This document shows positions 659-15,645 of a stretch of DNA of 59,397 bases, one piece after another. Position 1 is the stretch's first letter; every line of letters begins with the position of its first letter. The notes beneath the pieces are model-generated. The model was given only the letters and a program-made list of their open reading frames with translations, was not told the origin of the DNA and made no database searches. The position numbers and the translations under genes are program-made. Origin of the DNA: Candidatus Woesearchaeota archaeon (GTDB taxonomy: Archaea; Nanobdellota; Nanobdellia; Woesearchaeales; ARS49); NCBI GenBank assembly GCA_038884575.1, contig JAWABQ010000004.1, positions 1 to 59,397 of the forward strand, in the 5' to 3' direction.

Positions 659-1357
659 TTACTTCAGTGCAAACCCCTTAGTCCCCATCCAAATCGGCAC
701 TTCATACCCTTCTGGAACGTGCTTGAACTTCACAATGCCTTCAGAAACCAAGTCATTTATGCTCACAATTCCTGCCTTCTGGTCATCCATTCGCGGGCAG
801 GCAGTGTTGACCCAGCAGTCAATGAAGTTAAAGTCCTCCAGATGCCTGAAATCAAAAGTGTCGCAGGCAAAAATAAAGTATTCCTTGTCCCCTTTTTTCT
901 TCAACTGCAGTGCCCTTTGCAGGTTTTTCTGCCCTGGTTTTGTGCTCACAATAATCCCAACACTTTTTGCATTCAAAAACTTCAAGACAGCACCCTTCCT
1001 TGCCTTTTCATAAGCCAAAACTTCGTTCTTGTCAAGCTCCTTGAACTCGTTTGTGTAAGGATTAAAGCAAAAAACAGGCTTTTTTGACTGGATTGCGACA
1101 TTTATCGGGTGAAAAACACCACTGCCGACAAACAGGTAAGCATCAACCCTTGAAGCAAGCTTTAATGCCATTGCTGCATTGCAACCAAGCACCTGTCCGC
1201 CTGCAATTGAGCCAGGAACCTGCTTCACAATAGCCGGAATTTGGTTGGCGAACTGAATGCTTGCAACAACACCAACTTTCCTGGGCAGTTTTTTCAGCAC
1301 AGCACGAGGAATAACAACCTTTCTTGTGCTGTGCGCATGAATGAACAATGTTTTCAT
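659..1357 (-). CDS. dph2: Diphthamide biosynthesis protein Dph1/Dph2 family (short form)
   Basis: GQVLGC, FVGSGVFH, VSTKPGQ, NTACPR motifs; only 232 aa. Confidence 0.85.
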   Translation of the reverse strand: MKTLFIHAHSTRKVVIPRAVLKKLPRKVGVVASIQFANQIPAIVKQVPGSIAGGQVLGCNAAMALKLASRVDAYLFVGSGVFHPINVAIQSKKPVFCFNPYTNEFKELDKNEVLAYEKARKGAVLKFLNAKSVGIIVSTKPGQKNLQRALQLKKKGDKEYFIFACDTFDFRHLEDFNFIDCWVNTACPRMDDQKAGIVSINDLVSEGIVKFKHVPEGYEVPIWMGTKGFALK

Positions 1358-1393
1358 AAAGAAAAGTTGCAGGACACTATTTATAAACCTGTC

Positions 1394-1888
1394 TCAGGAA
1401 GACGCATTCAGGCGCACAAGTAGTGCAAGGCTTTCCTCATACTCGCTGATATCGCTCTGCGTGTACTGGTCTGGCTTTTCCCTGACGTACTTGACAAGGT
1501 TCTCGAAAAACTCCTTCCTTGCAGCCACATATCTCCTGAACGCATTTGCCGAAACAAGCTCAATTGATGCAGCGCAAAGCTCAATGTCAAGGGCATCAAT
1601 GCACCTAATCTTGTTGTCAGCGCCGTTTTCAGCATATTCCACAAACTCGTGGAATGCCCATAATTTCTTGTACGGCTCATAAACCTCATCGCTCACGCCA
1701 ATAACATATCCATCCTCTTTCTTGCCTGCGCACACATAAGCAAAGCAGGGCAGGTCTGGATTGCGCTGCTGCGGAATGTCAAAGAATTCCAGTTTCTTGC
1801 CAGCAACATTCACCTTGTTCAGGCGGTAAAACAGGTTTTTGAACATTTGGCGCGCTGTTTCAATGTTATCTTTTGAATAAACCTTCAT
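1394..1888 (-). CDS. Hypothetical protein with HExxE motif (possible metal-binding site)
   Basis: 164-aa ORF packed in a minus-strand gene run; WAFHEFVEY. Confidence 0.6.
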   Translation of the reverse strand: MKVYSKDNIETARQMFKNLFYRLNKVNVAGKKLEFFDIPQQRNPDLPCFAYVCAGKKEDGYVIGVSDEVYEPYKKLWAFHEFVEYAENGADNKIRCIDALDIELCAASIELVSANAFRRYVAARKEFFENLVKYVREKPDQYTQSDISEYEESLALLVRLNASS

Positions 1889-2715: not shown

Positions 2716-3249
2716 TTATTCCCGTTCTGGCGCAGAATCCTGCTTTTTCTCTTCCTTTTCAGGCTCTTTCCTCTTGTAATCATCCCTGAGGAACTGCGGC
2801 TGATAATACTCGCGATGCCTTATTTCCCCAGGAGCCCTTATCCCACAGTCAGGAACCCTTGACCTGTCGCCTGAAATAAAAGAAAGCCCGAACGCAAGAC
2901 CCAATGCGCAGACAGGGACAAGCCAGGAAAAACTTTTTTCGCGCTCAGGCATTTTTTCCTCTGCAAGCTGGGCAAGGCTCTTTGTTGCACTATCATCCAT
3001 TCCAAGCCTTGCGCGCTCCTCAGCAAGAGTCAATGCCTCAAGAATGTCATACTCCCTGCCTGCATAAACGCAATCGCGGGATGCTTGCGGGTTGTTCTTC
3101 AGCTTTGCATAATCAAGCATCAGCATAACATGCGCCTTGTCAGCGCAAATTAGTCCATGACCAACATCAGAAAGAAGGGTCTTGTACTTCCTTTCAAATT
3201 CCAGCTCCTGCCTCTCAATATCTGAATACGGCTGTTCCATTATCTTCAC
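2716..3249 (-). CDS. Hypothetical single-pass membrane protein
   Basis: 177-aa ORF with hydrophobic WLVPVCALGLAFGLSFI segment; GGGGTGA SD-like site upstream. Confidence 0.6.
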   Translation of the reverse strand: MKIMEQPYSDIERQELEFERKYKTLLSDVGHGLICADKAHVMLMLDYAKLKNNPQASRDCVYAGREYDILEALTLAEERARLGMDDSATKSLAQLAEEKMPEREKSFSWLVPVCALGLAFGLSFISGDRSRVPDCGIRAPGEIRHREYYQPQFLRDDYKRKEPEKEEKKQDSAPERE

Positions 3250-3254
3250 CCCGC

Positions 3255-3860
3255 TCAGTATATGTAAGGTATCAGTTTCCTTGTCCTGTTCATATAGTTT
3301 GCGTATTCTTTGCCGTATTTCTCAATCAGCACCCTGTCCCTTGAGCTCACCCTGTATGCTGTTGCCAGAAGCAAAAGCACTGTGAAAACAAGCATGAACT
3401 TCAATGAAAGCGCGCACGCAAGGCCGGCAACAACAAGCAATAATCCAAGGTCGCGCGGATTCCTTATTGTTGCATAAATCCCGTTTGTCGAGTAAGGGGG
3501 CAATTCCTCTTTTGGCTCAAGAACCTGCAAGAACCACAAAAACTGCTTTCTTGCAACCATTGCCTTAAGCCAAGTGTTAAAGCCGAGCGCAAGAAGCACA
3601 AGCCCAACAACAGCCATTGAAGTGTATTCTGCTGACATCACAGGATTGCCGCTCTTTACATATTCCCCGATGCCAACACCAAGAGTCAAAAGGAATGTGA
3701 GGAGCCAAACCCATTTTGCCTCATCCTTCACCTGCGACTTATGATGATGCGCCCACTGAAGCACTTTTGTCCTGAACAATTCCCTGAACATAAGCAGTAT
3801 TGACATTGCCAAAAACAGCACTGCAACAGCCAAAAGCGGAATCCACAGCCACACTTCCAT
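3255..3860 (-). CDS. ICMT/PEMT-like membrane methyltransferase family protein (degenerate motifs)
   Basis: Multiple TM segments; TNGIYATIRNP and LIEKYGKEYANYMNRTRKLIPYIY C-terminal signature. Confidence 0.75.
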   Translation of the reverse strand: MEVWLWIPLLAVAVLFLAMSILLMFRELFRTKVLQWAHHHKSQVKDEAKWVWLLTFLLTLGVGIGEYVKSGNPVMSAEYTSMAVVGLVLLALGFNTWLKAMVARKQFLWFLQVLEPKEELPPYSTNGIYATIRNPRDLGLLLVVAGLACALSLKFMLVFTVLLLLATAYRVSSRDRVLIEKYGKEYANYMNRTRKLIPYIY

Positions 3861-3864
3861 AGTC

Positions 3865-4515
3865 TCACCTCGATTTTAGCACTGAAATGCGCTTGCAGTA
3901 TTTAATTATTGGGCATTTTGAGCAAAAAGGCGACACTGGAACACAAATGCCCTTGCCGTGGCTCACAAATGCCTCATTGACAACAAGCCAGTGCTTCCTC
4001 GGCACAATCCTCTCAAGAGCAAGCTCTGTCTTCTCAGGGCTTTTTGTTTTCACCCAGCCCAATCTATTTGAAACCCTGTGCACGTGCGTATCAACAGGCA
4101 GTGCAGGCACGCCAAAAGCATAAACAAGCACGCAATTAGCCACTTTCCTTCCAACACCAGGCAGTTCAAGCAGTTTATCCAGTTCCTGAGGCACTTTTCC
4201 ACCAAACTTTTTCATTAACATTCTTGAGGCATTAATGACATTCCTTGACTTGTTGTTGTAAAAACCAATCTTTCTGATTATCTTTGCCACATCAGCCTTC
4301 TTGGCGATAGCAAGCCTGGCTGCAGTCGGATACTTCCTGAACAAATCAGCAGCAACAACCTCAGTAACCTCATCCTTTGCACGCGCGCTCAAAATCGTCG
4401 ATATCAACACCTTGAACGCATCATACTTCTGCCCAAGCCTGCCAAGCATTGTCTTTTTGCCCTGCGACTTAAGAAGTTTTTTCAAAACAATGTCAATCTC
4501 AGCGTGGCTTACCAT
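3865..4515 (-). CDS. nth: Endonuclease III (HhH-GPD glycosylase, 4Fe-4S)
   Basis: LPGVGRKVAN HhH, PVDTHVHR, C-x6-C-x2-C-x5-C cluster motif; start taken at MVSHAEID. Confidence 0.93.
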   Translation of the reverse strand: MVSHAEIDIVLKKLLKSQGKKTMLGRLGQKYDAFKVLISTILSARAKDEVTEVVAADLFRKYPTAARLAIAKKADVAKIIRKIGFYNNKSRNVINASRMLMKKFGGKVPQELDKLLELPGVGRKVANCVLVYAFGVPALPVDTHVHRVSNRLGWVKTKSPEKTELALERIVPRKHWLVVNEAFVSHGKGICVPVSPFCSKCPIIKYCKRISVLKSR

Positions 4516-5317
4516 GCATTCTCCTCCAATGATACAAATACTGCTGGGCATAGCCTGCCATCCTGCCCCATTTTTTCCTCCCGAAATCACCCATCTGATT
4601 AAGCTTCATCTTTTTTGCCTCTGGATAACACTCTTTCAACACCCTTTCCATCCAGACATCAACAGGAAAGCTCTCGGTAAAGCCCAAGGAAAACAAAAGA
4701 ATGCAGTCAGCAACCTTTTCCCCAATCCCAGGAAGCTCCATTAATTTCTCTCTCGCCTGCTTGTAAGTCAGTTTTCTCAATCCCGCAAACCAAACATCAC
4801 TCACTCTTGCATTAACGCCAGCAATATACTTTGCCCTGAAACCAACACTGCACTTCTTCAGCTTTGCAATATCTTTCAAAGCACCAGGAGAAGGGAATGT
4901 GTAAAACTTTTTACCCCTGAAAATCACTGGCTTGCCAAACTTTTCAGCAATGCATTCCATGTTCTTCTTAATTTTCTTTATGTTTGAGAACTGCGAGCAA
5001 AGGAATCCAACAGTGCACTCCCAAGGGTCCTGCCTTATGATGCGAAGACCTGGATATTTCTTAATCGCGATCCTGAGCGCAGGGTCTTTAGACAATTGGT
5101 GCATTATTTCAAGATAATTCTCATCAAGCCCGAAAAAATGCCTGACAAAACGCTCAGAAGCGCCCTCAAAAAACAGCTTATTACCATCCTGGCGAGCCCT
5201 GAAAACCTTCTCCCTGGTAACTATATAATACCAGCCATCATGCAGGTGATGCCTGAAAAACTGGCCGGAATCAAGAGTATGAAGAAGATTGAAACCAAAG
5301 CACTTGATTAACCCCAT
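4499..5317 (-). CDS. ogg: 8-oxoguanine DNA glycosylase, OGG1 type
   Basis: TLDSGQFFR, GLRIIRQDPWE, LPGIGEKVADCILLF, FPVDVW, GYAQQYLY. Confidence 0.9.
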   Translation of the reverse strand: MGLIKCFGFNLLHTLDSGQFFRHHLHDGWYYIVTREKVFRARQDGNKLFFEGASERFVRHFFGLDENYLEIMHQLSKDPALRIAIKKYPGLRIIRQDPWECTVGFLCSQFSNIKKIKKNMECIAEKFGKPVIFRGKKFYTFPSPGALKDIAKLKKCSVGFRAKYIAGVNARVSDVWFAGLRKLTYKQAREKLMELPGIGEKVADCILLFSLGFTESFPVDVWMERVLKECYPEAKKMKLNQMGDFGRKKWGRMAGYAQQYLYHWRRMHGKPR

Positions 5318-5433: not shown

Positions 5434-8283
5434 ATGGGGTTGACGACCAACAGCGATTCTGCAAAGGCAGTTGAGGACTTGTTTTCATCTGAGATTGAAT
5501 TTAATGACAAGCGGCTGAAAATAAGCAGGCGCTTCACCAGACCAGGAGTGCACCCTTTTGATGAGCTTGAGTACGAAAAGCGCTCCTCTGTCATTGCAGA
5601 GCCTGACGGCAAGGTCGTATTCAAGCTTGAAGGCGCTGAAATCCCAAAAAACTGGTCCCAACTTGCAACAGACATAGTGGTATCAAAATACTTCAGAAAG
5701 GCCGGAGTGCCTGGAACAGGGCACGAAACAAGCGTAAGGCAGGTCATCCACAGAATTACAAACACAATACGCCTTGCAGGGGAGTCAATGGGCTACTTCC
5801 AGACAGCAGAAGACGCAGACACTTTTGAAATGGAGCTCGCGCACATCCTAATCAACCAGAAAGGGGCGTTTAACTCGCCAGTATGGTTCAACTGCGGGCT
5901 TTACCACCAGTACGGAATCTCAGGAACAGGCGGAAACTGGTACTGGGACTTTGACAGCCAGAGCATCCAGAAGACATCAGGGGCATATGCCAGACCGCAA
6001 TGCTCTGCGTGCTTCATCCAGTCAATACAGGACGACCTCATGAGCATCTTTGACCTTGTCAAGAGCGAGGCAAGGCTGTTCAAGTACGGCTCTGGCTCAG
6101 GCACAAACTTCTCCGCATTAAGGAGCAAGTACGAAAAGCTCGCAGGCGGAGGAACAAGCTCGGGCCTAATGACCTTTTTAGCAGTATTTGACCGCGCAGC
6201 AGGCTCGATGAAGTCAGGGGGGACAACAAGAAGGGCAGCAAAAATGGTGTGCCTTGACCTTGACCACCCTGAAATAATTGACTTCATAAACTGGAAAGTC
6301 AATGAGGAAAAGAAAGTCAAGGTATTGGTCGCAGCAGGATACCCGGCAGACTTCAACGGTGAGGCATACCAGACAGTCGCGGGCCAGAACTCAAACAACT
6401 CAGTAAGGGTTCCTGACGAGTTCATGCAGGCATACCTCACAGGCGGAAAGTGGAAGACAAGGTTCCGCACAACAGGCGAAGTCCACAAGGAATATGATGC
6501 GAGGGATATGATGCGGCAGATAGCGCAGGCAGCATGGGCGTGCGCAGACCCGGGAATCCAGTTTGACACAATAATAAACGACTGGCACACCTGCCCGAAC
6601 ACAGACAGGATAAAGGCAAGCAACCCGTGCAGCGAGTACATGTTCCTTGACGACTCATCCTGCAACCTTGCAAGCATAAACCTCATGAAGTTCCTGAATG
6701 AGGATGGAAGCTTTGACATTGAGGGATACAGGCACGCGTGCAGGATATTGCTGATTGCGCAGGAAATACTGGTTGACTTTGCAAGCTATCCCACAAGCTC
6801 AATCGCGAAAAACACCCACGAATTCCGGGCTCTCGGGCTTGGCTACGCAAACCTTGGCACGCTGCTCATGGTAATGGGAGTACCATATGACTCTGACAAG
6901 GGAAGGGCAATTGCAGGCGCTCTCACTGCAATAATGACAGGCCACGCATACTGCGTCTCCTCTGAAATGTCTGCAGTAAAAGGGCCATTCGCAGGATTTG
7001 CAAAAAACAGGGAGCCGATGCTGCGCGTGATGAGAAAGCACAGGGATGCGGCATACAAGATAGACGTAAGGCACTGCCCGCCAGACCTGCTAAAGGCAGC
7101 AAGGGATGACTGGGACAATGCGGTGGAGCTTGGGGAAAAATACGGCTACAGGAACGCGCAGGTGACAGTGCTTGCTCCGACAGGGACAATCGGGCTGCTG
7201 ATGGACTGCGACACAACAGGGGTTGAGCCAGACTTCTCGCTCGTCAAGTACAAGAAGCTTGCAGGCGGAGGCTTCTTCAAGATAATCAACCAAAGCATCC
7301 CAAGGGCGCTGAGGATGCTCGGCTACCTTGATGATGAAATCAAGGACATACAGGCACACATACTTGAGACAGGCACTATAGAAGGCGCGCCGCACATCAA
7401 GGAGGAGCACCTTGCGGTTTTTGACTGCGCGAACAAGTGCGGCAATGGAAAGCGCTTCATAAACCCAATGGGGCACATCAGGATGATGGCAGCAATCCAG
7501 CCATTCCTCTCAGGCTCCCTTTCAAAGACAGTCAACCTGCCAAATGAGACAACAGTTGAGGACATTGAGAAAATATATGTGGACAGCTGGAAGCTCGGCT
7601 TAAAGGCAGTTGCAGTCTACCGCGACGGGTGCAAACTGTCACAGCCACTGACAGCAGGCACAAAGGAAAAGACAGAAGCACAGGCAGACAAGCCCAGGAC
7701 AGCAGACTCAAAAACACTGCCATCAAGAAGAGCAGGGCTGACAGTTGACTCTGTTGTTGCAGGAAACAGGCTGATGATACGTACAGGAGAGTTCCCAGAT
7801 GGCTCGCTTGCGGAATTCAGCATAGACATGCACAAGGAAGGCTCGCCAATGAGGGGCCTGATGAACTGCATAGCACAGGCAGTATCAATAGGGCTGCAGC
7901 ACGGAGTCCCTCTTGAGAAATTCGTTGACGCATTCACGTTCACGCGCTTTGAGCCTGCAGGAATGACCACGCACCCCAACATCAAGACAAGCACAAGCAT
8001 TGTTGACTTTGTATTCAGGGTGCTCGGACTGGAATACCTGGGCAGGACAGACCTCGTGCACGTCAAGCCAGAGGCAAAAACACCAAAGGCAGAGCCTGCA
8101 TCGCAAAAACTGCCAGCACCAAGCGCCCCAAAGCCAAGCGCACCAGCAGCTGATGCTGTAAGCGCCCACCTGAAGAGCATGTCAGCAGACGCGCCTCCCT
8201 GCCCAAGCTGCGGCCACTTCACAGTCAGAAGCGGAACCTGCTACAAGTGCGTCAACTGCGGCTCAACAACAGGATGTTCGTAA
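5434..8283 (+). CDS. nrdJ: Class II (adenosylcobalamin) ribonucleotide reductase, intact, with C-terminal TSCPD-like domain and Cys-rich Zn ribbon
   Basis: FNSPVWFN, SACF (C193), SNPCSE (N397/C399/E401), SSCNL (C410), APTGTIG, SKTVN, YRDG; tail CPSCG..GTCYKCVNCG..GCS. Confidence 0.96.
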   Translation: MGLTTNSDSAKAVEDLFSSEIEFNDKRLKISRRFTRPGVHPFDELEYEKRSSVIAEPDGKVVFKLEGAEIPKNWSQLATDIVVSKYFRKAGVPGTGHETSVRQVIHRITNTIRLAGESMGYFQTAEDADTFEMELAHILINQKGAFNSPVWFNCGLYHQYGISGTGGNWYWDFDSQSIQKTSGAYARPQCSACFIQSIQDDLMSIFDLVKSEARLFKYGSGSGTNFSALRSKYEKLAGGGTSSGLMTFLAVFDRAAGSMKSGGTTRRAAKMVCLDLDHPEIIDFINWKVNEEKKVKVLVAAGYPADFNGEAYQTVAGQNSNNSVRVPDEFMQAYLTGGKWKTRFRTTGEVHKEYDARDMMRQIAQAAWACADPGIQFDTIINDWHTCPNTDRIKASNPCSEYMFLDDSSCNLASINLMKFLNEDGSFDIEGYRHACRILLIAQEILVDFASYPTSSIAKNTHEFRALGLGYANLGTLLMVMGVPYDSDKGRAIAGALTAIMTGHAYCVSSEMSAVKGPFAGFAKNREPMLRVMRKHRDAAYKIDVRHCPPDLLKAARDDWDNAVELGEKYGYRNAQVTVLAPTGTIGLLMDCDTTGVEPDFSLVKYKKLAGGGFFKIINQSIPRALRMLGYLDDEIKDIQAHILETGTIEGAPHIKEEHLAVFDCANKCGNGKRFINPMGHIRMMAAIQPFLSGSLSKTVNLPNETTVEDIEKIYVDSWKLGLKAVAVYRDGCKLSQPLTAGTKEKTEAQADKPRTADSKTLPSRRAGLTVDSVVAGNRLMIRTGEFPDGSLAEFSIDMHKEGSPMRGLMNCIAQAVSIGLQHGVPLEKFVDAFTFTRFEPAGMTTHPNIKTSTSIVDFVFRVLGLEYLGRTDLVHVKPEAKTPKAEPASQKLPAPSAPKPSAPAADAVSAHLKSMSADAPPCPSCGHFTVRSGTCYKCVNCGSTTGCS

Positions 8284-8450
8284 AAACTTCATTAAATGAA
8301 TACTGCTAATAACATCTCCTTACAGTCGCGGTGCCAACGATAATTGAATTTCTTTCTGTGCATTGCTTGGGGCTGTTGTTTAATGAGCGTATCGCAAAGC
8401 TTAAAAATCCAGAGTTCTAGAACATCCTCGGGGGAAAATTTCAGGATATT

Positions 8451-10610
8451 ATGGCCATTCTGACAAAGATTGTAAAGAGGAACGGCAGGGTAGTTGACTT
8501 CAACCCTGAGAAAATTGCAACCGCAATCTTCAAGGCAGCGCAGGCAGTGGGCTCGCCTGACATGGGGCTTGCACAATCCCTTGCCACGAAAGTGATTGCA
8601 ACAGCAGAGTCAAGATTCGGAACCGAAAAAACCCCCTCTGTCGAGGATATGCAGGACATAGTGGAGGAAACCCTGATTTCAAGCGGGGAAGCAAAGATTG
8701 CAAAGGCATACATCCTTTACAGGCAAAAAAGAACAGAACTAAGAAACCTCAAAAAAGCAATACTGCAGGGGCAGACAGACGAAGAAGTAGACCTTTCACT
8801 GAATGCCCTTAAGGTTCTTGAGAAAAGATTCCTGAAAAAAGACGCAGACGGAAAGCTCCTTGAGACGCCCTCCCAAATGTTCAGGCGCGTCGCGGCAAAC
8901 ATAGCACAGGCAGACGCATTTTACGGCGGAGATGTTGCTGCAACAACAGAGCGCTTCTACGAAAGGATGCGCAAGCTCGAACTATTGCCAAGCACGCCGA
9001 CACTGATGAATGCAGGAACTTCAGTTCAGCAGCTGGTTGCATCATTTGTGCTGCCTGTCGAAGACTCAATAGAAAGCATTTTTGACGCGCTAAAGCACGC
9101 CGCAATGATACACAAGACAGGAGGCGGCACAGGATTCTCATTCTCAAAGCTCAGGCCAAAGCACGACATCATCGTGACAAGCCAAGGCCAGTCAACAGGA
9201 CCCACAGCATTTATGAGGCTTTTTGACGCATCAACCAACATAATAAAGGAAGGCGGGGCACAAAGGGGGGCAAACATCGGAATCCTGAGGGTAGACCACC
9301 CAGACATACTTGAATTCATCAACCTCAAGGCAGACGGCAAAAGCTTCACCAACTTCAACCTATCAGTCGGAGTCACTGACACTTTCATGGAGGCAGTGCT
9401 GAACGACAGGGAATACCAAATAATAAACCCAAGGACAAGACAGCCAGTAACGACCCTTTCTGCAAGGGGCGTGTTTGACAACATCATCGCCCTTGCCTGG
9501 CAGCGCGGAGACCCGGGCCTGATTTTCATAGACAGGATAAACCAGCACAACCCATTGCTTGCGCTTGGCGAAATAGAGGCAACAGACCCGTGCGGGGACC
9601 AGCCATTGCTGCCTTACGAGTCAGCACCGCTGGCTGCAATCAACCTGCTCTCCTGCGTCAAACAAGGAGACATGAACTGGGAAAAGCTCAAGGAACTGGT
9701 CCACGATGCAGTCCACATGCTTGACAACGTCATTGACGTGAACAAATACCCATTGCAGGAAATAGAAAGGGCAAGCAAGGCAACAAGGAAGATAGGAGTG
9801 GGCATAATGGGCTTTGCAGATACGCTTTACCACATAGGCGTGCCTTATGACTCTGAATCAGGGCTTGAATGGTGTGAAAAAATAATGAAGTTCATCAAGG
9901 AAGAGGCTGTGGCAAAAAGCATGGAGCTCGCAGAACAGCGCGGAACATTCCCCTCATGGGCTGAAAGCACGTTTTCGCAAAGGGGGCTGCCATTAAGGAA
10001 CGCAGGGCTGATAACAATCGCGCCAACAGGCACAATAAGCATGATAGCAGATGTCTCGCCGTCAATAGAGCCGAATTTCGCAATATCCTTTGTCAAGAAC
10101 GTGATGGGCGACACTGACCTCGTGTATGTCAACAAAGTCTTCTCAAAAGTCGCCAAGAAAAGGAACTTTTACTCAGACCAGCTGATAAGGGAAATTGCAG
10201 ACAAGGGCGGAATACAGCACATTCCTGAAATTCCTGATGACGTCAAAAGGGTATTTGTGACAGCACAGGAAATAATGCCTGAATGGCACATCAGGATGCA
10301 GGCAGCATTCCAAAAGCACGTTGACAACGCAATTTCCAAGACAATTAATTTCCCTGCTGATGCAAGCCTGCAGGAAGTCTCACAGGGGTTCATACTTGCA
10401 TACAAGCTCGGCTGCAAAGGGCTGACTGTTTACCGCGACAAAAGCCTTGACCAGCAGGTAATACAGGTGTCGCACGCCAAAAGGTTTGACCAGAAGGAAG
10501 AGCAGAAAGGGCAGAACCCGTTCCTGCGCTGCTCTGAATGCGGGGCCTCGCTGCAGTTCTCCCAAGGAAAAGGGCTGTGCCAGGTGTGCGGCACAGAGCT
10601 GCTCCAATGA
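8451..10610 (+). CDS. ATP-cone class II RNR paralog with remodelled active site (redox cysteines lost)
   Basis: IVKRNGRVVDFNPEKI ATP cone, PSTPTLMNAG, GGGTG, APTGTIS, AISKTIN, YRD; but VASF (S198), TDPCGD, ESAPL (A392). Confidence 0.92.
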   Translation: MAILTKIVKRNGRVVDFNPEKIATAIFKAAQAVGSPDMGLAQSLATKVIATAESRFGTEKTPSVEDMQDIVEETLISSGEAKIAKAYILYRQKRTELRNLKKAILQGQTDEEVDLSLNALKVLEKRFLKKDADGKLLETPSQMFRRVAANIAQADAFYGGDVAATTERFYERMRKLELLPSTPTLMNAGTSVQQLVASFVLPVEDSIESIFDALKHAAMIHKTGGGTGFSFSKLRPKHDIIVTSQGQSTGPTAFMRLFDASTNIIKEGGAQRGANIGILRVDHPDILEFINLKADGKSFTNFNLSVGVTDTFMEAVLNDREYQIINPRTRQPVTTLSARGVFDNIIALAWQRGDPGLIFIDRINQHNPLLALGEIEATDPCGDQPLLPYESAPLAAINLLSCVKQGDMNWEKLKELVHDAVHMLDNVIDVNKYPLQEIERASKATRKIGVGIMGFADTLYHIGVPYDSESGLEWCEKIMKFIKEEAVAKSMELAEQRGTFPSWAESTFSQRGLPLRNAGLITIAPTGTISMIADVSPSIEPNFAISFVKNVMGDTDLVYVNKVFSKVAKKRNFYSDQLIREIADKGGIQHIPEIPDDVKRVFVTAQEIMPEWHIRMQAAFQKHVDNAISKTINFPADASLQEVSQGFILAYKLGCKGLTVYRDKSLDQQVIQVSHAKRFDQKEEQKGQNPFLRCSECGASLQFSQGKGLCQVCGTELLQ

Positions 10611-11182
10611 AAATCTACACAAAAACAGGCGATGAGGGGAAAACCAGCTTTGTCGGAGGGGAAAGGGTCTCAAAAAACGACCTAAGAATAGAGGCAACAG
10701 GCACCCTTGACGAGCTAAACAGCGTGCTTGGAGTCACGCTCGGCTTTGTAACAGACGAAAAAATCCAGCAGATACTAATCAAGGCCCAGCACGACCTTTT
10801 CACGCTTGGAGCAGAGCTTTCCTGGTTCACAAGCAAGGCAAGCACAGGCACAAAGCAGCTGCCGCTAACATCACCCCAGCAGGTAAAAGAGCTGGAAAAC
10901 CACATTGACGAGCTTGACGTGCTGCTGACAGAGCCAAAGTCATTCATCCTGCCAAAAGGCACGCAGGCAAGCACTTTCCTGCATTTTGCAAGAACAGTCT
11001 GCAGGCGCGCTGAAAGGCTTATAGTCTCGCTAAGCCAGCAATACCCGCTGAATCCTGAAATAATAAAGTACATGAACAGGCTTTCTGACCTGCTGTATGT
11101 CATGGCAAGGTACGCAAACAAGGAATTTGCCGCAGGCGAACAGCAGCCAATCTACAAGTACTTCAAGAAGAACGGCGAATAA
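10607..11182 (+). CDS. pduO: PduO-type cob(I)alamin adenosyltransferase
   Basis: MKIYTKTGDEG, GTLDELNS, FILP, ARTVCRRAER, YMNRLSDLLY; ATGA overlap with upstream stop. Confidence 0.95.
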   Translation: MKIYTKTGDEGKTSFVGGERVSKNDLRIEATGTLDELNSVLGVTLGFVTDEKIQQILIKAQHDLFTLGAELSWFTSKASTGTKQLPLTSPQQVKELENHIDELDVLLTEPKSFILPKGTQASTFLHFARTVCRRAERLIVSLSQQYPLNPEIIKYMNRLSDLLYVMARYANKEFAAGEQQPIYKYFKKNGE

Positions 11183-11395: not shown

Positions 11396-12031
11396 ATGAA
11401 AAAAGCAGTGCTGTTTGACTTTTGGGGAACGCTTGTGCAGCAGGGCGCATATTCGCCCCTCAAGCAGACTTACAGGTTCATGCGCCCAGGAATGGTGTTT
11501 GGCGAATTTGTTGAAAAATTCGAGCGGATAGCAATGACAAAGCCGTACGACGACCAGGCAAAAATGTTCAGGGACGCGTTTGACGCATTCGGGCTCAGGG
11601 CGCCTGACTGGGTCATTGAGAAGCTCATTGGGGTATGGAACAAGAACAAGCTCCTCGCAAAGCCCTACCCTGACACAATGCAAGCCCTTGAAATGCTGAA
11701 AAGCAGGGGAATAAAGATTGCAATCGTATCAAACACCCCAAAACTGTCTGTTGACGGAATGCTTGAAAAATTCGGGTTTGACAGGCTCTTTGACGCAGTA
11801 TGCTTCTCGTACGAGACAGGCCTGCTGAAGACAGACGCTGAAATGTTTGACGTTGCCCTCGGAAAGCTTGGCGTAACCAAGGACGAGGCAATAATGGTCG
11901 GAGACAGCCTTGAGACAGACATTGCAGGCGCAGAGCACGCAGGAGTAATGGCTGTGCTGATTGACCGCAAAGGCACGCGCGAATACAAGAACAAAATAAA
12001 AAGCCTGACTGAAATCGAGAAATTCCTCTGA
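11396..12031 (+). CDS. HAD-superfamily hydrolase
   Basis: FDFWGTL, IVSN, K, MVGDSLETD motifs. Confidence 0.9.
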   Translation: MKKAVLFDFWGTLVQQGAYSPLKQTYRFMRPGMVFGEFVEKFERIAMTKPYDDQAKMFRDAFDAFGLRAPDWVIEKLIGVWNKNKLLAKPYPDTMQALEMLKSRGIKIAIVSNTPKLSVDGMLEKFGFDRLFDAVCFSYETGLLKTDAEMFDVALGKLGVTKDEAIMVGDSLETDIAGAEHAGVMAVLIDRKGTREYKNKIKSLTEIEKFL

Positions 12032-12041
12032 GGTGACAAGT

Positions 12042-12449
12042 ATGGATGACTGCATTTTCTGCAAAATCATTGCAGGGAAGATTCCTGCAATGAAAGTCTA
12101 TGAGAATGACAAAATCTTCGCATTCCTTGACATAATGCCTGTCAACCCAGGACACACGCTTGTTGTCCCAAGGGCGCACCACGCTGACCTGCTTGAGACT
12201 CCTGATGATGTGCTCAGCGACATGATAACGCGCACAAAAAAGATAGCAACAGCAGTGATGAAGGCAGTAAAAGCAGACGGGTTCAATGTCGGCATAAACA
12301 CAAAGCCAGCAGCAGGCCAGGCAGTATTCCACACCCACTTACACATAATGCCGCGCTTCAGTAATGATGGCCTCAGGCACTGGCCGCACAAAAAGCTCAG
12401 CGATGAGGAAATGAAAAAAGTGCAGGATGCAATAAAGGCAAACTTGTGA
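12042..12449 (+). CDS. HIT family nucleotide hydrolase (intact triad)
   Basis: DCIFCKII, GHTLVVP, FHTHLHIMPR; GAGGTGA SD upstream. Confidence 0.93.
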   Translation: MDDCIFCKIIAGKIPAMKVYENDKIFAFLDIMPVNPGHTLVVPRAHHADLLETPDDVLSDMITRTKKIATAVMKAVKADGFNVGINTKPAAGQAVFHTHLHIMPRFSNDGLRHWPHKKLSDEEMKKVQDAIKANL

Positions 12450-13124: not shown

Positions 13125-14153
13125 TTGAGCCATGTTCCTGTGGCAACAATAGCATTTTACGAACTTGAGCCCTGGGAAAAGGAATACCTCAAAAAGAGGC
13201 TGAAAACGCACAAGCTTATTTTTATTGACGGCAAGCTCACTGCGGCAACAGCTGAAAAAGCAAAGCTTGCAGATGCAGTCAGCGTCTTCATCTATTCAAA
13301 AGTGGACAAGGCAGCCATTTCAAAGCTGCCAAAAGCAAAGCTCGTGAACACGATGAGCACAGGCTTTGACCATATAGACCTTAAGGCATGCAAAGCCAAA
13401 AAAATAACAGTGACAAACGTGCCCGCCTATGGCGACGTGACTGTTGCTGAGCACACATTTGCCCTCCTGCTTGCATTGTCGCGCAAGATTGTGCAGGCAG
13501 CAGAGACAACCCGCAAGGGCGGCTTTGAGTTCAGCGGTCTTTGCGGCACAGACCTGAAGGGAAAAACCCTTGGCGTTGTCGGCACAGGAAAAATCGGCAG
13601 GAATGTCGCCCACATAGGCGTATGCGGATTTGGGATGAAAGTCATAGCATATGACACCTATCCTAACCTTGATGCTGCAAAAGAATGCGGATTCCAGTAT
13701 GTTCCGTTTGAAAAACTCCTTGCAGAATCAGATGTAATAACCTTCCATGTGCCTTTGACAAAGGAAACAACCCACATGCTCAACAGGAAAAACCTCAACA
13801 AGGTGAAAAAAGGCGCAATACTGATTAACACCTCAAGGGGGGCAGTGGTTGAGACAGGAGCAATACTTGAAGGCATTGCAAAAAAAATATTTTCAGGGGT
13901 CGGGCTTGATGTGATTGAGGAGGAAGGGGCAATAAAGGAGGAGCTTGAGCTGTTGGGCAGGCCTGCAAGGGAGATGAAGCCGGCTTACAAGACCCTCCTG
14001 GAGGCGCATGTCCTTGTGGAGCAGCCAAATGTGATCATAACCCCGCACTGCGCATTCTACTCAAAAGAGGCATTGCAGCGCATAATCGACACAACAATAC
14101 AGAACATTGAGGGCTTCCTGGCAAAGAAGCCTGTGAATGTTGTCAAGTGCTGA
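13125..14153 (+). CDS. D-2-hydroxyacid (D-lactate-type) dehydrogenase; start possibly GTG 13140
   Basis: STGFDHIDL, VAEH, GVVGTGKIG, INTSRG, LDVIEEE, TPHCAF. Confidence 0.92.
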   Translation: MSHVPVATIAFYELEPWEKEYLKKRLKTHKLIFIDGKLTAATAEKAKLADAVSVFIYSKVDKAAISKLPKAKLVNTMSTGFDHIDLKACKAKKITVTNVPAYGDVTVAEHTFALLLALSRKIVQAAETTRKGGFEFSGLCGTDLKGKTLGVVGTGKIGRNVAHIGVCGFGMKVIAYDTYPNLDAAKECGFQYVPFEKLLAESDVITFHVPLTKETTHMLNRKNLNKVKKGAILINTSRGAVVETGAILEGIAKKIFSGVGLDVIEEEGAIKEELELLGRPAREMKPAYKTLLEAHVLVEQPNVIITPHCAFYSKEALQRIIDTTIQNIEGFLAKKPVNVVKC

Positions 14154-15153: not shown

Positions 15154-15645
15154 TTATTTCCTGTAGATTTCCAGCGCTGCAACTGATGTTGGCGCAAATT
15201 TCTTCGGCATTCTTCTCAGCATGCTGCGCATTTCCTTCCATTCCATGAATTTGCCGCTTTCAATCTCGTACTTGTTAAGCCTGCCTGCGCGGCCAATTTC
15301 TGCAGAATACTGGGTGACAAATGCGTTTTCAGGCTTTGCCTTATGCCTGAACGTGAACAGTTTCATGACTTTTTTCGGCTTGACGCCAAGTTCCTCAAAA
15401 ATTTCCCTTATCGCCGCCTGGCGGTATGTTTCGCCTGCATCAACATGCCCTGCAATGGAAACATCAAGAAGCCCTGGATAAACCGCTTTTCTTTTGCTTC
15501 TTTTTGCAACAAATATCCTGCCTTTTTTGTCAAACACGAATGCCTGAATCATTCTGTGGGCAAGGAATTTTTTGTGGCATTTTTCACGGGCTTCTTTTCC
15601 CACAACCCTGTCCCTTCCATTGACAATATCAAGCATTTCCTGCAT
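15154..15645 (-). CDS. NUDIX hydrolase (IDI/YfcD-like)
   Basis: GHVDAGETYRQAAIREIFEELGV Nudix box. Confidence 0.9.
   Translation of the reverse strand: MQEMLDIVNGRDRVVGKEAREKCHKKFLAHRMIQAFVFDKKGRIFVAKRSKRKAVYPGLLDVSIAGHVDAGETYRQAAIREIFEELGVKPKKVMKLFTFRHKAKPENAFVTQYSAEIGRAGRLNKYEIESGKFMEWKEMRSMLRRMPKKFAPTSVAALEIYRK

Follow-up and report, generated by a model that had tools for sequence, protein, structure and literature searches.

All ribonucleotide reductases (RNRs) of classes I and II are described by Lundin 2015 as having the radical cysteine and two reducing cysteines. In the six-cysteine tail of the class II enzyme NrdJ, four cysteines were proposed as zinc ligands and two, C933 and C945, as an electron shuttle, and in NrdJd of Stackebrandtia nassauensis the zinc-finger domain drives the formation of dATP/dGTP-dependent oligomers (Loderer 2017, PMC5704485). 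The window analysed here, the whole 59,397-nucleotide stretch of contig JAWABQ010000004.1 from a Candidatus Woesearchaeota archaeon (assembly GCA_038884575.1), contains an open and intact reading frame (ORF) of 719 amino acids that encodes a Thermotoga maritima-type NrdJ bearing an ATP cone (Table 1), referred to below as the paralog. Judged from its sequence, the paralog belongs to the NrdJ homology family yet lacks four features that define a reductase. The redox cysteine pair of the active site is not present (S198, A392), nor are the asparagine and the glutamate of the finger loop (D379, D383), and the C-terminal electron-shuttle cysteine pair is missing, C694, C697, C710 and C713 being the only cysteines of the tail. 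The thiyl-radical cysteine at the tip of the finger loop is present, C381 being aligned with the cysteine of TNPCGE. Given S198, D379, D383, A392 and P393 and the loss of the tail shuttle, the paralog cannot reduce ribonucleotides, and it must serve another job, either the regulation of the neighbouring enzyme or a new radical reaction. Such paralogs break the rule of two reducing cysteines under strong selection, and do so repeatedly within one archaeal order.

The paralog scored 663.8 bits against TIGR02504 (cut-off 399.95), and T. maritima NrdJ (1xje/1xjk) was its best solved relative (E ~5e-114, HMMER). In Pfam, the RNR all-alpha domain (PF00317) covered residues 114-191 and the RNR barrel (PF02867) residues 197-661 (E 7.6e-126). 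The cone carries the K-R-x-G nucleotide-binding motif (IVKRNGRVVDF), which would place it in the ATP-cone family, and its PF03477 score exceeded the 53.5 bits of a canonical NrdJ encoded on contig 20 of the same genome. An AlphaFold2 model based on a 71-sequence alignment (predicted local distance difference test, pLDDT, 86.5; predicted template modelling score 0.85) matched best the fold of T. maritima NrdJ chain 1xje_B, with a target-normalised template modelling (TM) score of 0.84 and 35% identity. Its fold matches include the adenosylcobalamin (AdoCbl) complexes 3o0n and 3o0o (TM 0.82-0.84, target-normalised), and inside the barrel pLDDT was lowest in specificity loops 1 and 2, which we take, by homology to the Escherichia coli and T. 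maritima enzymes, to lie within residues 232-273.

The paralog and T. maritima NrdJ (1xje, 3o0n, 3o0o) share the all-alpha domain, the barrel, the radical-cysteine finger loop, diphosphate-type loops, SKTIN and YRD. Unlike that enzyme, the paralog has no redox cysteine pair and no finger-loop Asn or Glu, has Q-to-E and R-to-Q changes in loop 2, and carries a well-scoring cone. In the HMMER alignment LSACF of T. maritima NrdJ is paired with LVASF, TNPCGE with TDPCGD, and YEACNL with YESAPL. We take S198 to be the equivalent of E. coli C225, D379 and D383 those of N437 and E441, and A392 that of C462. The codons of the finger loop are GAC for D379 (9585), TGC for C381 (9591) and GAC for D383 (9597-9599). 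Since the Ser, Ala and Pro codons each lie at least two base changes away from Cys or Asn codons, a single-base sequencing error is no explanation. A nucleotide phosphate site, formed by the distal APTG loop and the apical loop PSTP, is present as well. The sequence-only reading had named S198, D379-P-C381-G-D383 and A392-Pro with their positions, all of which proved correct when the codons were read directly. The intact frame, the ATP cone, APTGTIS, SKTIN and YRD that it had reported as kept were borne out by Pfam and by the T. maritima alignment, and its description of the tail, with two CxxC pairs kept and the 'EGC' and terminal cysteines missing, matches the roles proposed for these residues by Loderer 2017.

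The relatives compared were the 120 best database matches, divided into the 28 closest (P0001-P0028, 66-100% identity; clade 1) and the other 92. S198, D379, C381 and P393 occur in all 28 clade members, D383 in 26 (Gly in P0020, Glu in P0028) and A392 also in 26, with Ser in the other two, whereas all 92 canonical relatives have C, N, C, E, C and N at these six positions, a difference well beyond chance. P380, invariant in the canonical relatives, is Ser in 20/28 clade members. The four-cysteine tail is found throughout the clade and the 'EGC' and terminal cysteines are absent from every member; the closest canonical relatives carry a six-cysteine tail. Compared with S. nassauensis NrdJd (Loderer 2017), the paralog keeps the four zinc-type cysteines, the shuttle pair is absent from 28/28 members, and a second clade described below (clade 2) has no such tail. 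At residue 181, in the apical phosphate loop, the clade has Asn in 21 members, Ser in six and Ala in one, Asn giving the P-N-x-P diphosphate type; the P-N-S-P loop is given this meaning in Schell 2021. The clade-wide changes comprise the five catalytic positions and S396A, loops 1 and 2, and a few others (Y127F, G538S, E565S). Conservation among the 92 canonical relatives reaches 95% or more in 202 columns, and in 139 of these the clade has the same residue without exception.

All trees were quick IQ-TREE runs (LG+G4) with long-branch warnings, and metagenome-assembled genomes are the source of every sequence. The 28 sequences group together in a 98-row tree as a single clade with a Shimodaira-Hasegawa-like approximate likelihood ratio test (SH-aLRT) support of 100, a stem of 0.25 and ordinary internal branch lengths, nested among canonical cone-bearing NrdJs with a zinc-finger tail. 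Among 401 sampled genomes of the phylum, matches of at least 82% identity were confined to the genus of the window (six genomes including its own), the next best match having 56% identity. Among 77 genomes of the family, the paralog was found in 8/8 genomes of the genus, one copy being partial, and the other matches (52-61% identity) were all canonical by motif. These phylum and family tallies include ten unpublished genomes (G243, G396, G333, G322, G360, G441, G434, G401, G446 and G442), which were counted only as being without a g1-type paralog or as RNR-positive, no sequence of theirs being analysed and no positive finding depending on them. Among the best 150 matches in a set of 50%-identity representatives, no representative of the clade was present; other degenerate forms were.

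The ratio of nonsynonymous to synonymous substitution rates (dN/dS) of the paralog was 0.037-0.107 (Nei-Gojobori; 17 of 21 pairs computable), with 0.058 at dS 0.15 and 0.037 at dS 0.43 in unsaturated pairs, compared with 0.077-0.141 for the upstream long NrdJ and 0.03-0.14 for the downstream PduO gene. The paralog is, as far as these comparisons of sequences go, a functional protein under selection and not a reductase. The clade-wide signature and the low dN/dS support the earlier suggestion of selection rather than decay: the altered residues were found in 28/28 clusters and 8/8 genus genomes with no ortholog having canonical cysteines, C381 is invariant in the clade, and dN/dS lies far below 1 and does not exceed that of the canonical NrdJ next to it.

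Constraint is unevenly distributed along the protein. Entropy was calculated per segment for the clade (28) and the canonical relatives (92), the whole protein giving 0.63 and 1.21, respectively. Specificity loop 1 (0.92 in the clade versus 0.75) and loop 2 (0.58 versus 0.33) are relaxed, and the finger loop (0.35 versus 0.40) is mildly so, whereas the P-loop APTGTIS (0.38 versus 0.66) and beta-J (0.22 versus 0.74) are as constrained as in the canonical relatives or more, and SKTIN is likewise constrained in the clade. Beta-J lines the adenosyl pocket of class II RNRs, according to the description in Burnim 2022. The allosteric specificity loops 1 and 2 are not conserved in the clade, which shows Q267E in 22/28 and R271Q in 26/28 members, changes at T244, S249 and S253, and insertions or deletions in loop 1.

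Comparable losses occur elsewhere in the same order. Classification of same-family copies at the six key positions, with unpublished genomes skipped, gave 64 rows (63 ORFs and the window protein), of which 49 were canonical, six S-D-C-D-A-P, and the remainder five other degenerate patterns, G438 and one fragment. The other patterns were C-G-C-E-T-P (G427, G426), I-S-C-E-A-I (G080), A-N-C-E-C-P (G264), N-T-C-C-C-Q and N-T-C-S-V-Q (G430b and G431b), and G-I-T-E-C-F (G145), the last being the sole classified copy without the thiyl cysteine; in G438 (C-N-C-E-C-T) position 393 alone is changed. Degenerate database proteins were P0201 (C-D-C-D-S-V), P0209 (S-D-C-E-T-P), P0228 (C-D-C-E-C-P), P0214, P0145, P0273 and the pair P0280/P0281. 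In the latter two, which are sister clusters, Asn is replaced by Ser and the terminal cysteine by Tyr, and P0281 has additionally exchanged the second active-site cysteine for Ala and lost the 'EGC' tail cysteine, so that the pair appears to show, by sequence comparison, a stepwise loss of redox and tail cysteines still in progress. At least nine further lineages lack the Asn and/or the redox cysteines, with Asn replaced by D, S, G, T or I depending on the lineage, and an ATP cone was found in every degenerate copy tested for one.

The second clade (P0376-P0394, 19 clusters) was found by a search seeded with P0201 and belongs to another family of the order, f21, where it occurs in 7/8 sampled genomes. 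It is marked by S (or I)-D-C-D-G/S, has the finger sequence ETTDPCGDQ and lacks the cysteine tail, and the equivalents of D379, C381 and D383 are invariant in 19/19 clusters. Clade 2 is 47-48% identical to the window protein, and a canonical relative 57-58%. More D-C-D forms were S-D-C-D-V-C in G005 and C-D-C-D-V-P in G154, and two scans of the 401 sampled genomes of the phylum located a D-C-D copy in 15 genomes. Among the D-C-D forms and their relatives position 198 drifts between S, C and I, and position 392 between A, S, G, V, T and C. In a free tree calculated without the very long branches of G145, G430b and G431b, clade 2 grouped with P0201, P0228 and P0209 (SH-aLRT 100), apart from clade 1, which lay among canonical NrdJs (SH-aLRT 96-98). 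However, one clade for all 32 Asn-to-Asp rows was not rejected by the approximately unbiased (AU) test (p 0.35), so convergence is not claimed as shown.

Two of the other forms may be described here as observations in their own right. The G145 copy (L132 4533..6608, reverse strand; 692 amino acids) is cone-bearing, has TIPTGE at the finger loop and a deletion in loop 2, and is a singleton, no ortholog above 45% identity being found in the 77 family genomes. The copies of G427 and G426 (L124 1201..3216 and L125 1054..3102, both reverse strand) form with P0271-P0273 a small clade of C-G/S-C-E-T-P/N type, which has one bottom-face cysteine and the thiyl cysteine, no second cysteine or cysteine tail, and CobA downstream; by analogy with formate-using class III RNRs, one might speculate that this form still reduces with a small reductant.

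The order long NrdJ, paralog, PduO was found in 7/7 loci of the genus, the gap between the first two genes being 167 nucleotides in the window and 500-640 nucleotides in related loci. The ATG of the PduO gene, which encodes an ATP:cob(I)alamin adenosyltransferase, overlaps the TGA of the paralog (ATGA at 10607-10610), and the paralog possibly has a promoter and ribosome-binding site of its own (Table 1). The long NrdJ scored 1308 bits against NF005122 (NCBIfam; cut-off 859) and ends in the six-cysteine tail CPSCGHFTVRSGTCYKCVNCGSTTGCS, its orthologs have C/N/C/E/C/N at the key residues, and it is presumed to be the catalytic partner of the paralog. The same arrangement recurs in family f21 as a cone-less canonical NrdJ (625-678 amino acids), a cone-bearing clade-2 paralog and PduO. 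PduO lies directly downstream of the paralog in 7/7 f21 loci, and the cone-less NrdJ immediately precedes it in G036, G100 and G194. In G247 and G051 the two are separated by 7-9 kb of the same contig, whereas G093 and G081 encode the cone-less NrdJ at another place in the genome. Four f21 genomes that were checked contain two full RNR genes only (G051 has in addition, where a contig ends, a barrel fragment of 31 positions), so that their sole ATP cone sits on the non-reducing copy.

Degenerate cone-bearing copies also lie beside a cone-less NrdJ in G145 (gap of 3 nucleotides), G264 (7 nucleotides), G080 (2 kb) and G044 (0.8 kb), and pairing is probable in G005, where a barrel fragment is found upstream at the contig start. 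The G145 cluster consists of the degenerate copy, a 995-amino-acid cone-less NrdJ downstream of it (L132 1545..4529, reverse strand) and then PduO (976..1608, reverse strand). The cone-less NrdJ of G264 (G264:C25), just upstream of the degenerate copy, is split into two overlapping ORFs of 426 and 335 amino acids (L131 1517..2794 and 2772..3776, forward strand), a region with two in-frame TGA codons in which a frameshift, recoding or a broken gene is possible. Altogether, pairing with a cone-less NrdJ was found in seven of the ten lineages with enough flanking sequence; no such neighbour was found beside the degenerate copies of G427/G426, G430b/G431b and G154. In contrast, a second RNR gene lay in the flank of only one of 42 canonical cone-bearing loci (G280). 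The genomes are related and not independent, and these figures are therefore given as counts without statistics. An adenosyltransferase is encoded directly downstream in 15/16 D-C-D loci. However, one of the CobA or PduO type also flanks 16/42 canonical cone-bearing loci, with NrdJ-PduO pairs in G420 and G421, which weakens the adjacency of PduO as specific proof of B12 use.

RNR-fold proteins that have lost their catalytic residues are known from yeast (Rnr4, or beta-prime) and from betaherpesviruses (M45, UL45), and Rnr4 is an obligate partner of its active paralog. Those proteins belong to class I and occur in eukaryotes and their viruses, whereas the present paralog is a class II archaeal protein in which the radical cysteine and a pair of carboxylates are conserved; no class II or prokaryotic dead subunit of the alpha type was found in our literature search. 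ATP cones acting from another subunit have precedents, and the paralog cone matched that of the cone-bearing NrdB chain 5olk_A (E 8.7e-08). In NrdB, activity is controlled from a non-catalytic subunit, as we propose for the paralog; there, however, the cone is carried by the beta subunit, which generates the radical in a class I enzyme, whereas here the carrier would be a dead copy of the catalytic subunit of a one-subunit class II enzyme. A different likeness is offered by glycerol dehydratase, YbiW and PflD, glycyl-radical eliminases and isomerases for which PMC13450708 describes a Cys-x-Glu motif, a thiyl radical, a general base acting on a hydroxyl and a redox-neutral loss of the neighbouring hydroxyl group without a dithiol. 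The ten-stranded barrel and the cysteine loop are homologous, and in the paralog the motif is Cys-Gly-Asp; those enzymes, however, use a glycyl radical and not AdoCbl and act on non-nucleotide substrates; the resemblance is one of possible working and not of membership. The paralog is no member of the curated 'ribonucleotide reductase-like protein' family NF005401, which is named as distinct from reductases, a 604-position model against which it scored 277.5 bits (cut-off 906), and none of the proteins scored reached this cut-off. No description of RNR homologs, class II or prokaryotic, that lack the redox cysteines was found in the literature consulted, though the supplementary alignments of Burnim 2022 and Schell 2021 might hold some. 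New here are clade 2, which shares the S/D-C-D signature, the at least nine further degenerate lineages and the recurrent three-gene order.

Considering these results, we tentatively propose as our preferred reading the following scenario, which the sequences make possible and which we would still place somewhat short of an even chance: the paralog may be a non-reducing alpha-prime subunit that carries an ATP cone and works as a partner of the cone-less NrdJ. The paralog would assemble with the cone-less catalytic NrdJ encoded upstream, its cone would supply ATP/dATP-dependent control of overall activity in trans, and the downstream adenosyltransferase would serve the NrdJ-paralog complex. Physical association and regulation through the cone would be the core of such a partnership, and the thiyl cysteine and the Asp-x-Cys-x-Asp loop may or may not still bind a ligand or cofactor. 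Between the two options that the sequence-only reading had offered, the recurrent operon pairing with a cone-less NrdJ favours a non-catalytic nucleotide sensor, and the repeated, conserved D-x-C-x-D finger loop favours a radical enzyme; the alpha-prime role and a radical reaction are not mutually exclusive. The relaxation of loops 1 and 2 beside a kept cone, P-loop and beta-J counts for the alpha-prime role, as may, by analogy, the kept zinc ribbon, which mediates oligomers in a studied NrdJ. The G145 copy, lacking the thiyl cysteine in a tight three-gene cluster, argues for a non-catalytic role of at least some of these proteins, and the variety of replacements for Asn looks more like repeated loss than one convergent chemistry. 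Several observations weigh against a purely regulatory partner. The thiyl cysteine is kept in all degenerate lineages but one, and a carboxylate (Glu or Asp) two residues after it in all except G430b/G431b (Cys or Ser). Almost all of these lineages have another residue in place of the Asn, which is, among the five catalytic residues, the sole one changed in P0280, P0145 and P0228, with the reservation that P0145 and P0228 show a further difference at position 393, a site that is variable in sequences canonical in all other respects. Two clades that are 47-48% identical have the S / T-D-P-C-G-D signature fixed, which would not be expected of a mere scaffold, and a single heterodimer interface is not obvious when the neighbouring catalytic NrdJs come from widely differing subfamilies with 26-47% identity to the paralog. 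Furthermore, the window genome is not deprived of a cone, having the canonical cone-bearing NrdJ of contig 20; G302 and G162 are examples that run a cone-less long NrdJ alone; and loop 1, which would be needed to regulate the specificity of a partner, is relaxed too.

These objections lead to the other reading of substance, a new AdoCbl/thiyl-radical enzyme confined to the first half of RNR catalysis and acting in a redox-neutral manner as a nucleoside diphosphate (NDP) 2'-dehydratase or eliminase, which on sequence grounds is possible, although we regard it with reservations. The C381 radical would take the 3'-hydrogen of an NDP and D383 accept the proton of the 3'-hydroxyl; D379 (or S198) would then protonate the leaving 2'-hydroxyl, and the 3'-keto-2'-yl radical would regain hydrogen from the C381 thiol. 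The product, 3'-keto-2'-deoxy-NDP, would be handed on or decay to base, pyrophosphate and furanone, the ATP cone would gate the reaction, and the part of PduO would be to load the cofactor or adenosylate it afresh. E. coli C225S and N437D enzymes still abstract the 3'-hydrogen and lose water, and E441D keeps some activity, which counts in favour of such a reaction. The Cys-x-carboxylate of the cysteine loop (C381-G-D383) is present and the dithiol absent, with D379 a candidate acid by its position only. D379 and C381 (28/28) and D383 (26/28) in clade 1 and all three residues (19/19) in clade 2 are conserved; D, C and D recur in G005, G154 and P0201, and D, C and E in P0209 and P0228. T-D-P-C-G-D has been conserved long-term or in parallel over about 50 clusters. 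The drift of bottom-face positions 198 and 392 would be expected if the top face alone works, the Asn was the first residue lost in three lineages, and the nesting of clade 1 among canonical NrdJs (SH-aLRT 96-98), apart from clade 2, suggests a parallel origin of the signature. In addition, beta-J, a strand of the adenosyl pocket, varies less within the clade than among canonical relatives, and a downstream adenosyltransferase is more frequent at D-C-D loci (15/16) than at canonical ones (16/42), with the ATGA overlap in the window. The glycyl-radical 1,2-eliminases combine the same barrel fold with Cys-x-Glu, a general acid and the return of hydrogen from the thiol, and it is established in the literature consulted that RNR chemistry can proceed to the 3'-keto-2'-deoxynucleotide, which breaks down to furanone. 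Yet a single origin of the 32 Asn-to-Asp rows was not rejected, the S, G, T or I of other lineages, one of them without the cysteine, fit loss better, and constraint on the finger loop is, in relative terms, weaker than among canonical relatives (0.35 versus 0.40, with 0.63 versus 1.21 for the whole protein; P380 being Ser in 20/28). The product would be reactive and self-decomposing, no downstream enzyme is conserved in the neighbourhood, the HAD, HIT and dehydrogenase genes of the window not being found in five related loci, and the recurrent cone-less state of the neighbouring NrdJ would be left unexplained. To our knowledge, halting at the 3'-keto-2'-deoxynucleotide has been described only for mutant RNRs, as a suicide side reaction; here it would have become a selected function. 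The wider proposition, that the S/Asp-x-Cys-x-Asp paralogs are the first non-reductase enzymes of the class I/II RNR lineage, namely cone-gated AdoCbl/thiyl NDP 2'-dehydratases or eliminases in at least two DPANN clades, is likewise suggested by their sequences and strikes us as possible but less likely than not.

As a dock, store or chaperone that passes AdoCbl from PduO to the catalytic NrdJs of a B12-scavenging host and performs no nucleotide chemistry, the paralog would explain its translational coupling to PduO, the adenosyltransferase downstream in 15/16 D-C-D loci, the presence of AdoCbl complexes of T. maritima NrdJ among the best fold matches, the conservation of beta-J and the finger-loop region, and the two adenosyltransferases for three NrdJ-like genes in the genome; but this role leaves unexplained why the ATP cone, the P-loop and a diphosphate-type apical loop have been kept, the adjacency may be inherited given the 16/42 canonical loci, we know of no RNR-fold cofactor chaperone, and we consider it unlikely. 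We give still less credence to a paralog that remains a reductase with an external reductant, either a small molecule entering through an enlarged bottom face or the tail cysteines of a partner acting in trans. The changes from Cys to Ala and from Asn to Pro should widen the space below the ribose, class III RNRs use formate, showing that a protein dithiol is not obligatory (Lundin 2015), and electron delivery between subunits of oligomers has been shown (Loderer 2017, PMC5704485). Formate-using class III enzymes, however, are described as keeping one bottom-face cysteine, whereas the paralog has lost both together with the Asn and the tail pair, and the loss of tail and active-site cysteines in step in P0280/P0281 points to the abandonment of the entire electron path. 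A decaying pseudogene or an artefact of assembly or binning would fit the metagenomic origin of every sequence but is scarcely credible, and was rejected in view of the intact 719-codon frame, the dN/dS of 0.04-0.11, the orthologs in 8/8 genus genomes and in 28 database clusters from several sources, the changes that need multiple base substitutions, and the conserved gene order.

If the paralogs are alpha-prime subunits, no dead partner of the catalytic-subunit type would have been known before for a class II RNR; ATP-cone control would be exerted in trans in a new way, and regulatory and catalytic roles would be cleanly split over two copies of a gene. If the paralogs are enzymes instead, B12 radical chemistry on nucleotides would gain a new branch. 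In either case their annotation matters. Equivalog models name these paralogs 'adenosylcobalamin-dependent ribonucleoside-diphosphate reductase', NCBI likewise names the relatives of the window protein reductases, and this naming inflates RNR counts and inferences on deoxynucleoside triphosphate supply for DPANN genomes.

Table 1. Positions of the paralog, its sequence elements and neighbouring genes in the window
Feature	Positions	Strand	Basis or remark
Non-reducing NrdJ paralog	8451..10610	+	ATP cone, all-alpha domain, ten-stranded barrel and Zn ribbon
ATP cone, residues 6-96, motif IVKRNGRVVDFNPEKI	8466..8738	+	PF03477, 82.7 bits (cut-off 25.8)
Apical phosphate loop P180-S-T-P183, diphosphate (P-N-S-P) type	8988..8999	+	Aligned with PNSP of T. 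maritima
S198 (TCA), bottom-face Cys position	9042..9044	+	Codon read; T. maritima alignment
Specificity loops 1 and 2, residues 232-273 (presumed)	9144..9269	+	Homology to E. coli and T. maritima
Finger-loop tip D379-P-C381-G-D383	9585..9599	+	Asn to Asp, Glu to Asp; thiyl-radical Cys C381 retained
A392-P393, second redox Cys-Asn position	9624..9629	+	Codons GCA (9624) and CCG
Phosphate-binding A524-PTGTIS-530, kept	10020..10040	+	T. maritima NrdJ alignment
SKTIN (629-633) through beta-J VYRD (660-663), kept	10335..10439	+	T. maritima alignment; YRD at 661-663
Zn ribbon C694-x2-C697-x12-C710-x2-C713	10530..10589	+	Four ligand Cys present, two shuttle Cys gone
Candidate promoter TTAAAAAT (8401-8408) and ribosome-binding site GGGGG (8430-8434)	8401..8434	+	By eye, 5' of ATG 8451
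Long class II NrdJ, 949 amino acids, without ATP cone	5434..8283	+	Pfam: Ribonuc_red_2_N, barrel and TSCPD
PduO-type ATP:cob(I)alamin adenosyltransferase	10607..11182	+	PF01923, E 1.5e-58; TIGR00636, 178 bits (cut-off 108)
OGG-type 8-oxoguanine glycosylase	4499..5317	-	Pfam
HAD hydrolase	11396..12031	+	Pfam
HIT-family protein	12033..12449	+	Pfam

Beyond these genes, a 2-hydroxyacid dehydrogenase-like ORF (13125..14153) and a Nudix-like ORF (15154..15645, reverse strand) were recognised by eye only. Among these neighbours with nucleotide or DNA care functions, the OGG-type glycosylase alone was syntenic in related loci. The HAD hydrolase, the HIT-family protein and the 2-hydroxyacid dehydrogenase were considered as pathway partners and rejected, none of them being detected in the flanks of five related loci (tblastn, E <=1e-5).

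The host genome comprises 780 kb in 24 contigs and is 92.6% complete, and the sole sequencing run containing the stretch, a DNA run labelled hot springs metagenome, may represent the source sample. The canonical cone-bearing NrdJ of contig 20 (695 amino acids; L082 937..3024, reverse strand) has the motifs SACF, TNPCGE and EPCNL and the tail GGCPSDVCPF, and it is directly adjoined by a CobA/BtuR-type adenosyltransferase (L082 336..986, reverse strand), giving the genome a total of three NrdJ-like genes and two adenosyltransferases from different families. One of the five closest loci, L004, which has an 83% identical paralog and the same gene order, is titled 'uncultured Methanosarcinales archaeon'; it is probably a mislabelled bin, its sibling records being titled Woesearchaeota or Nanoarchaeia. 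Furthermore, the intein domains PF14528 and PF14890 were found in archaeal NrdJ relatives of about 1050-1140 amino acids (P0042, P0103, P0108, P0287, P0296 and others), and many 50%-identity representatives of 1000-1950 amino acids matched in several stretches, which suggests, from the sequences, that inteins may be frequent in this group of NrdJ.

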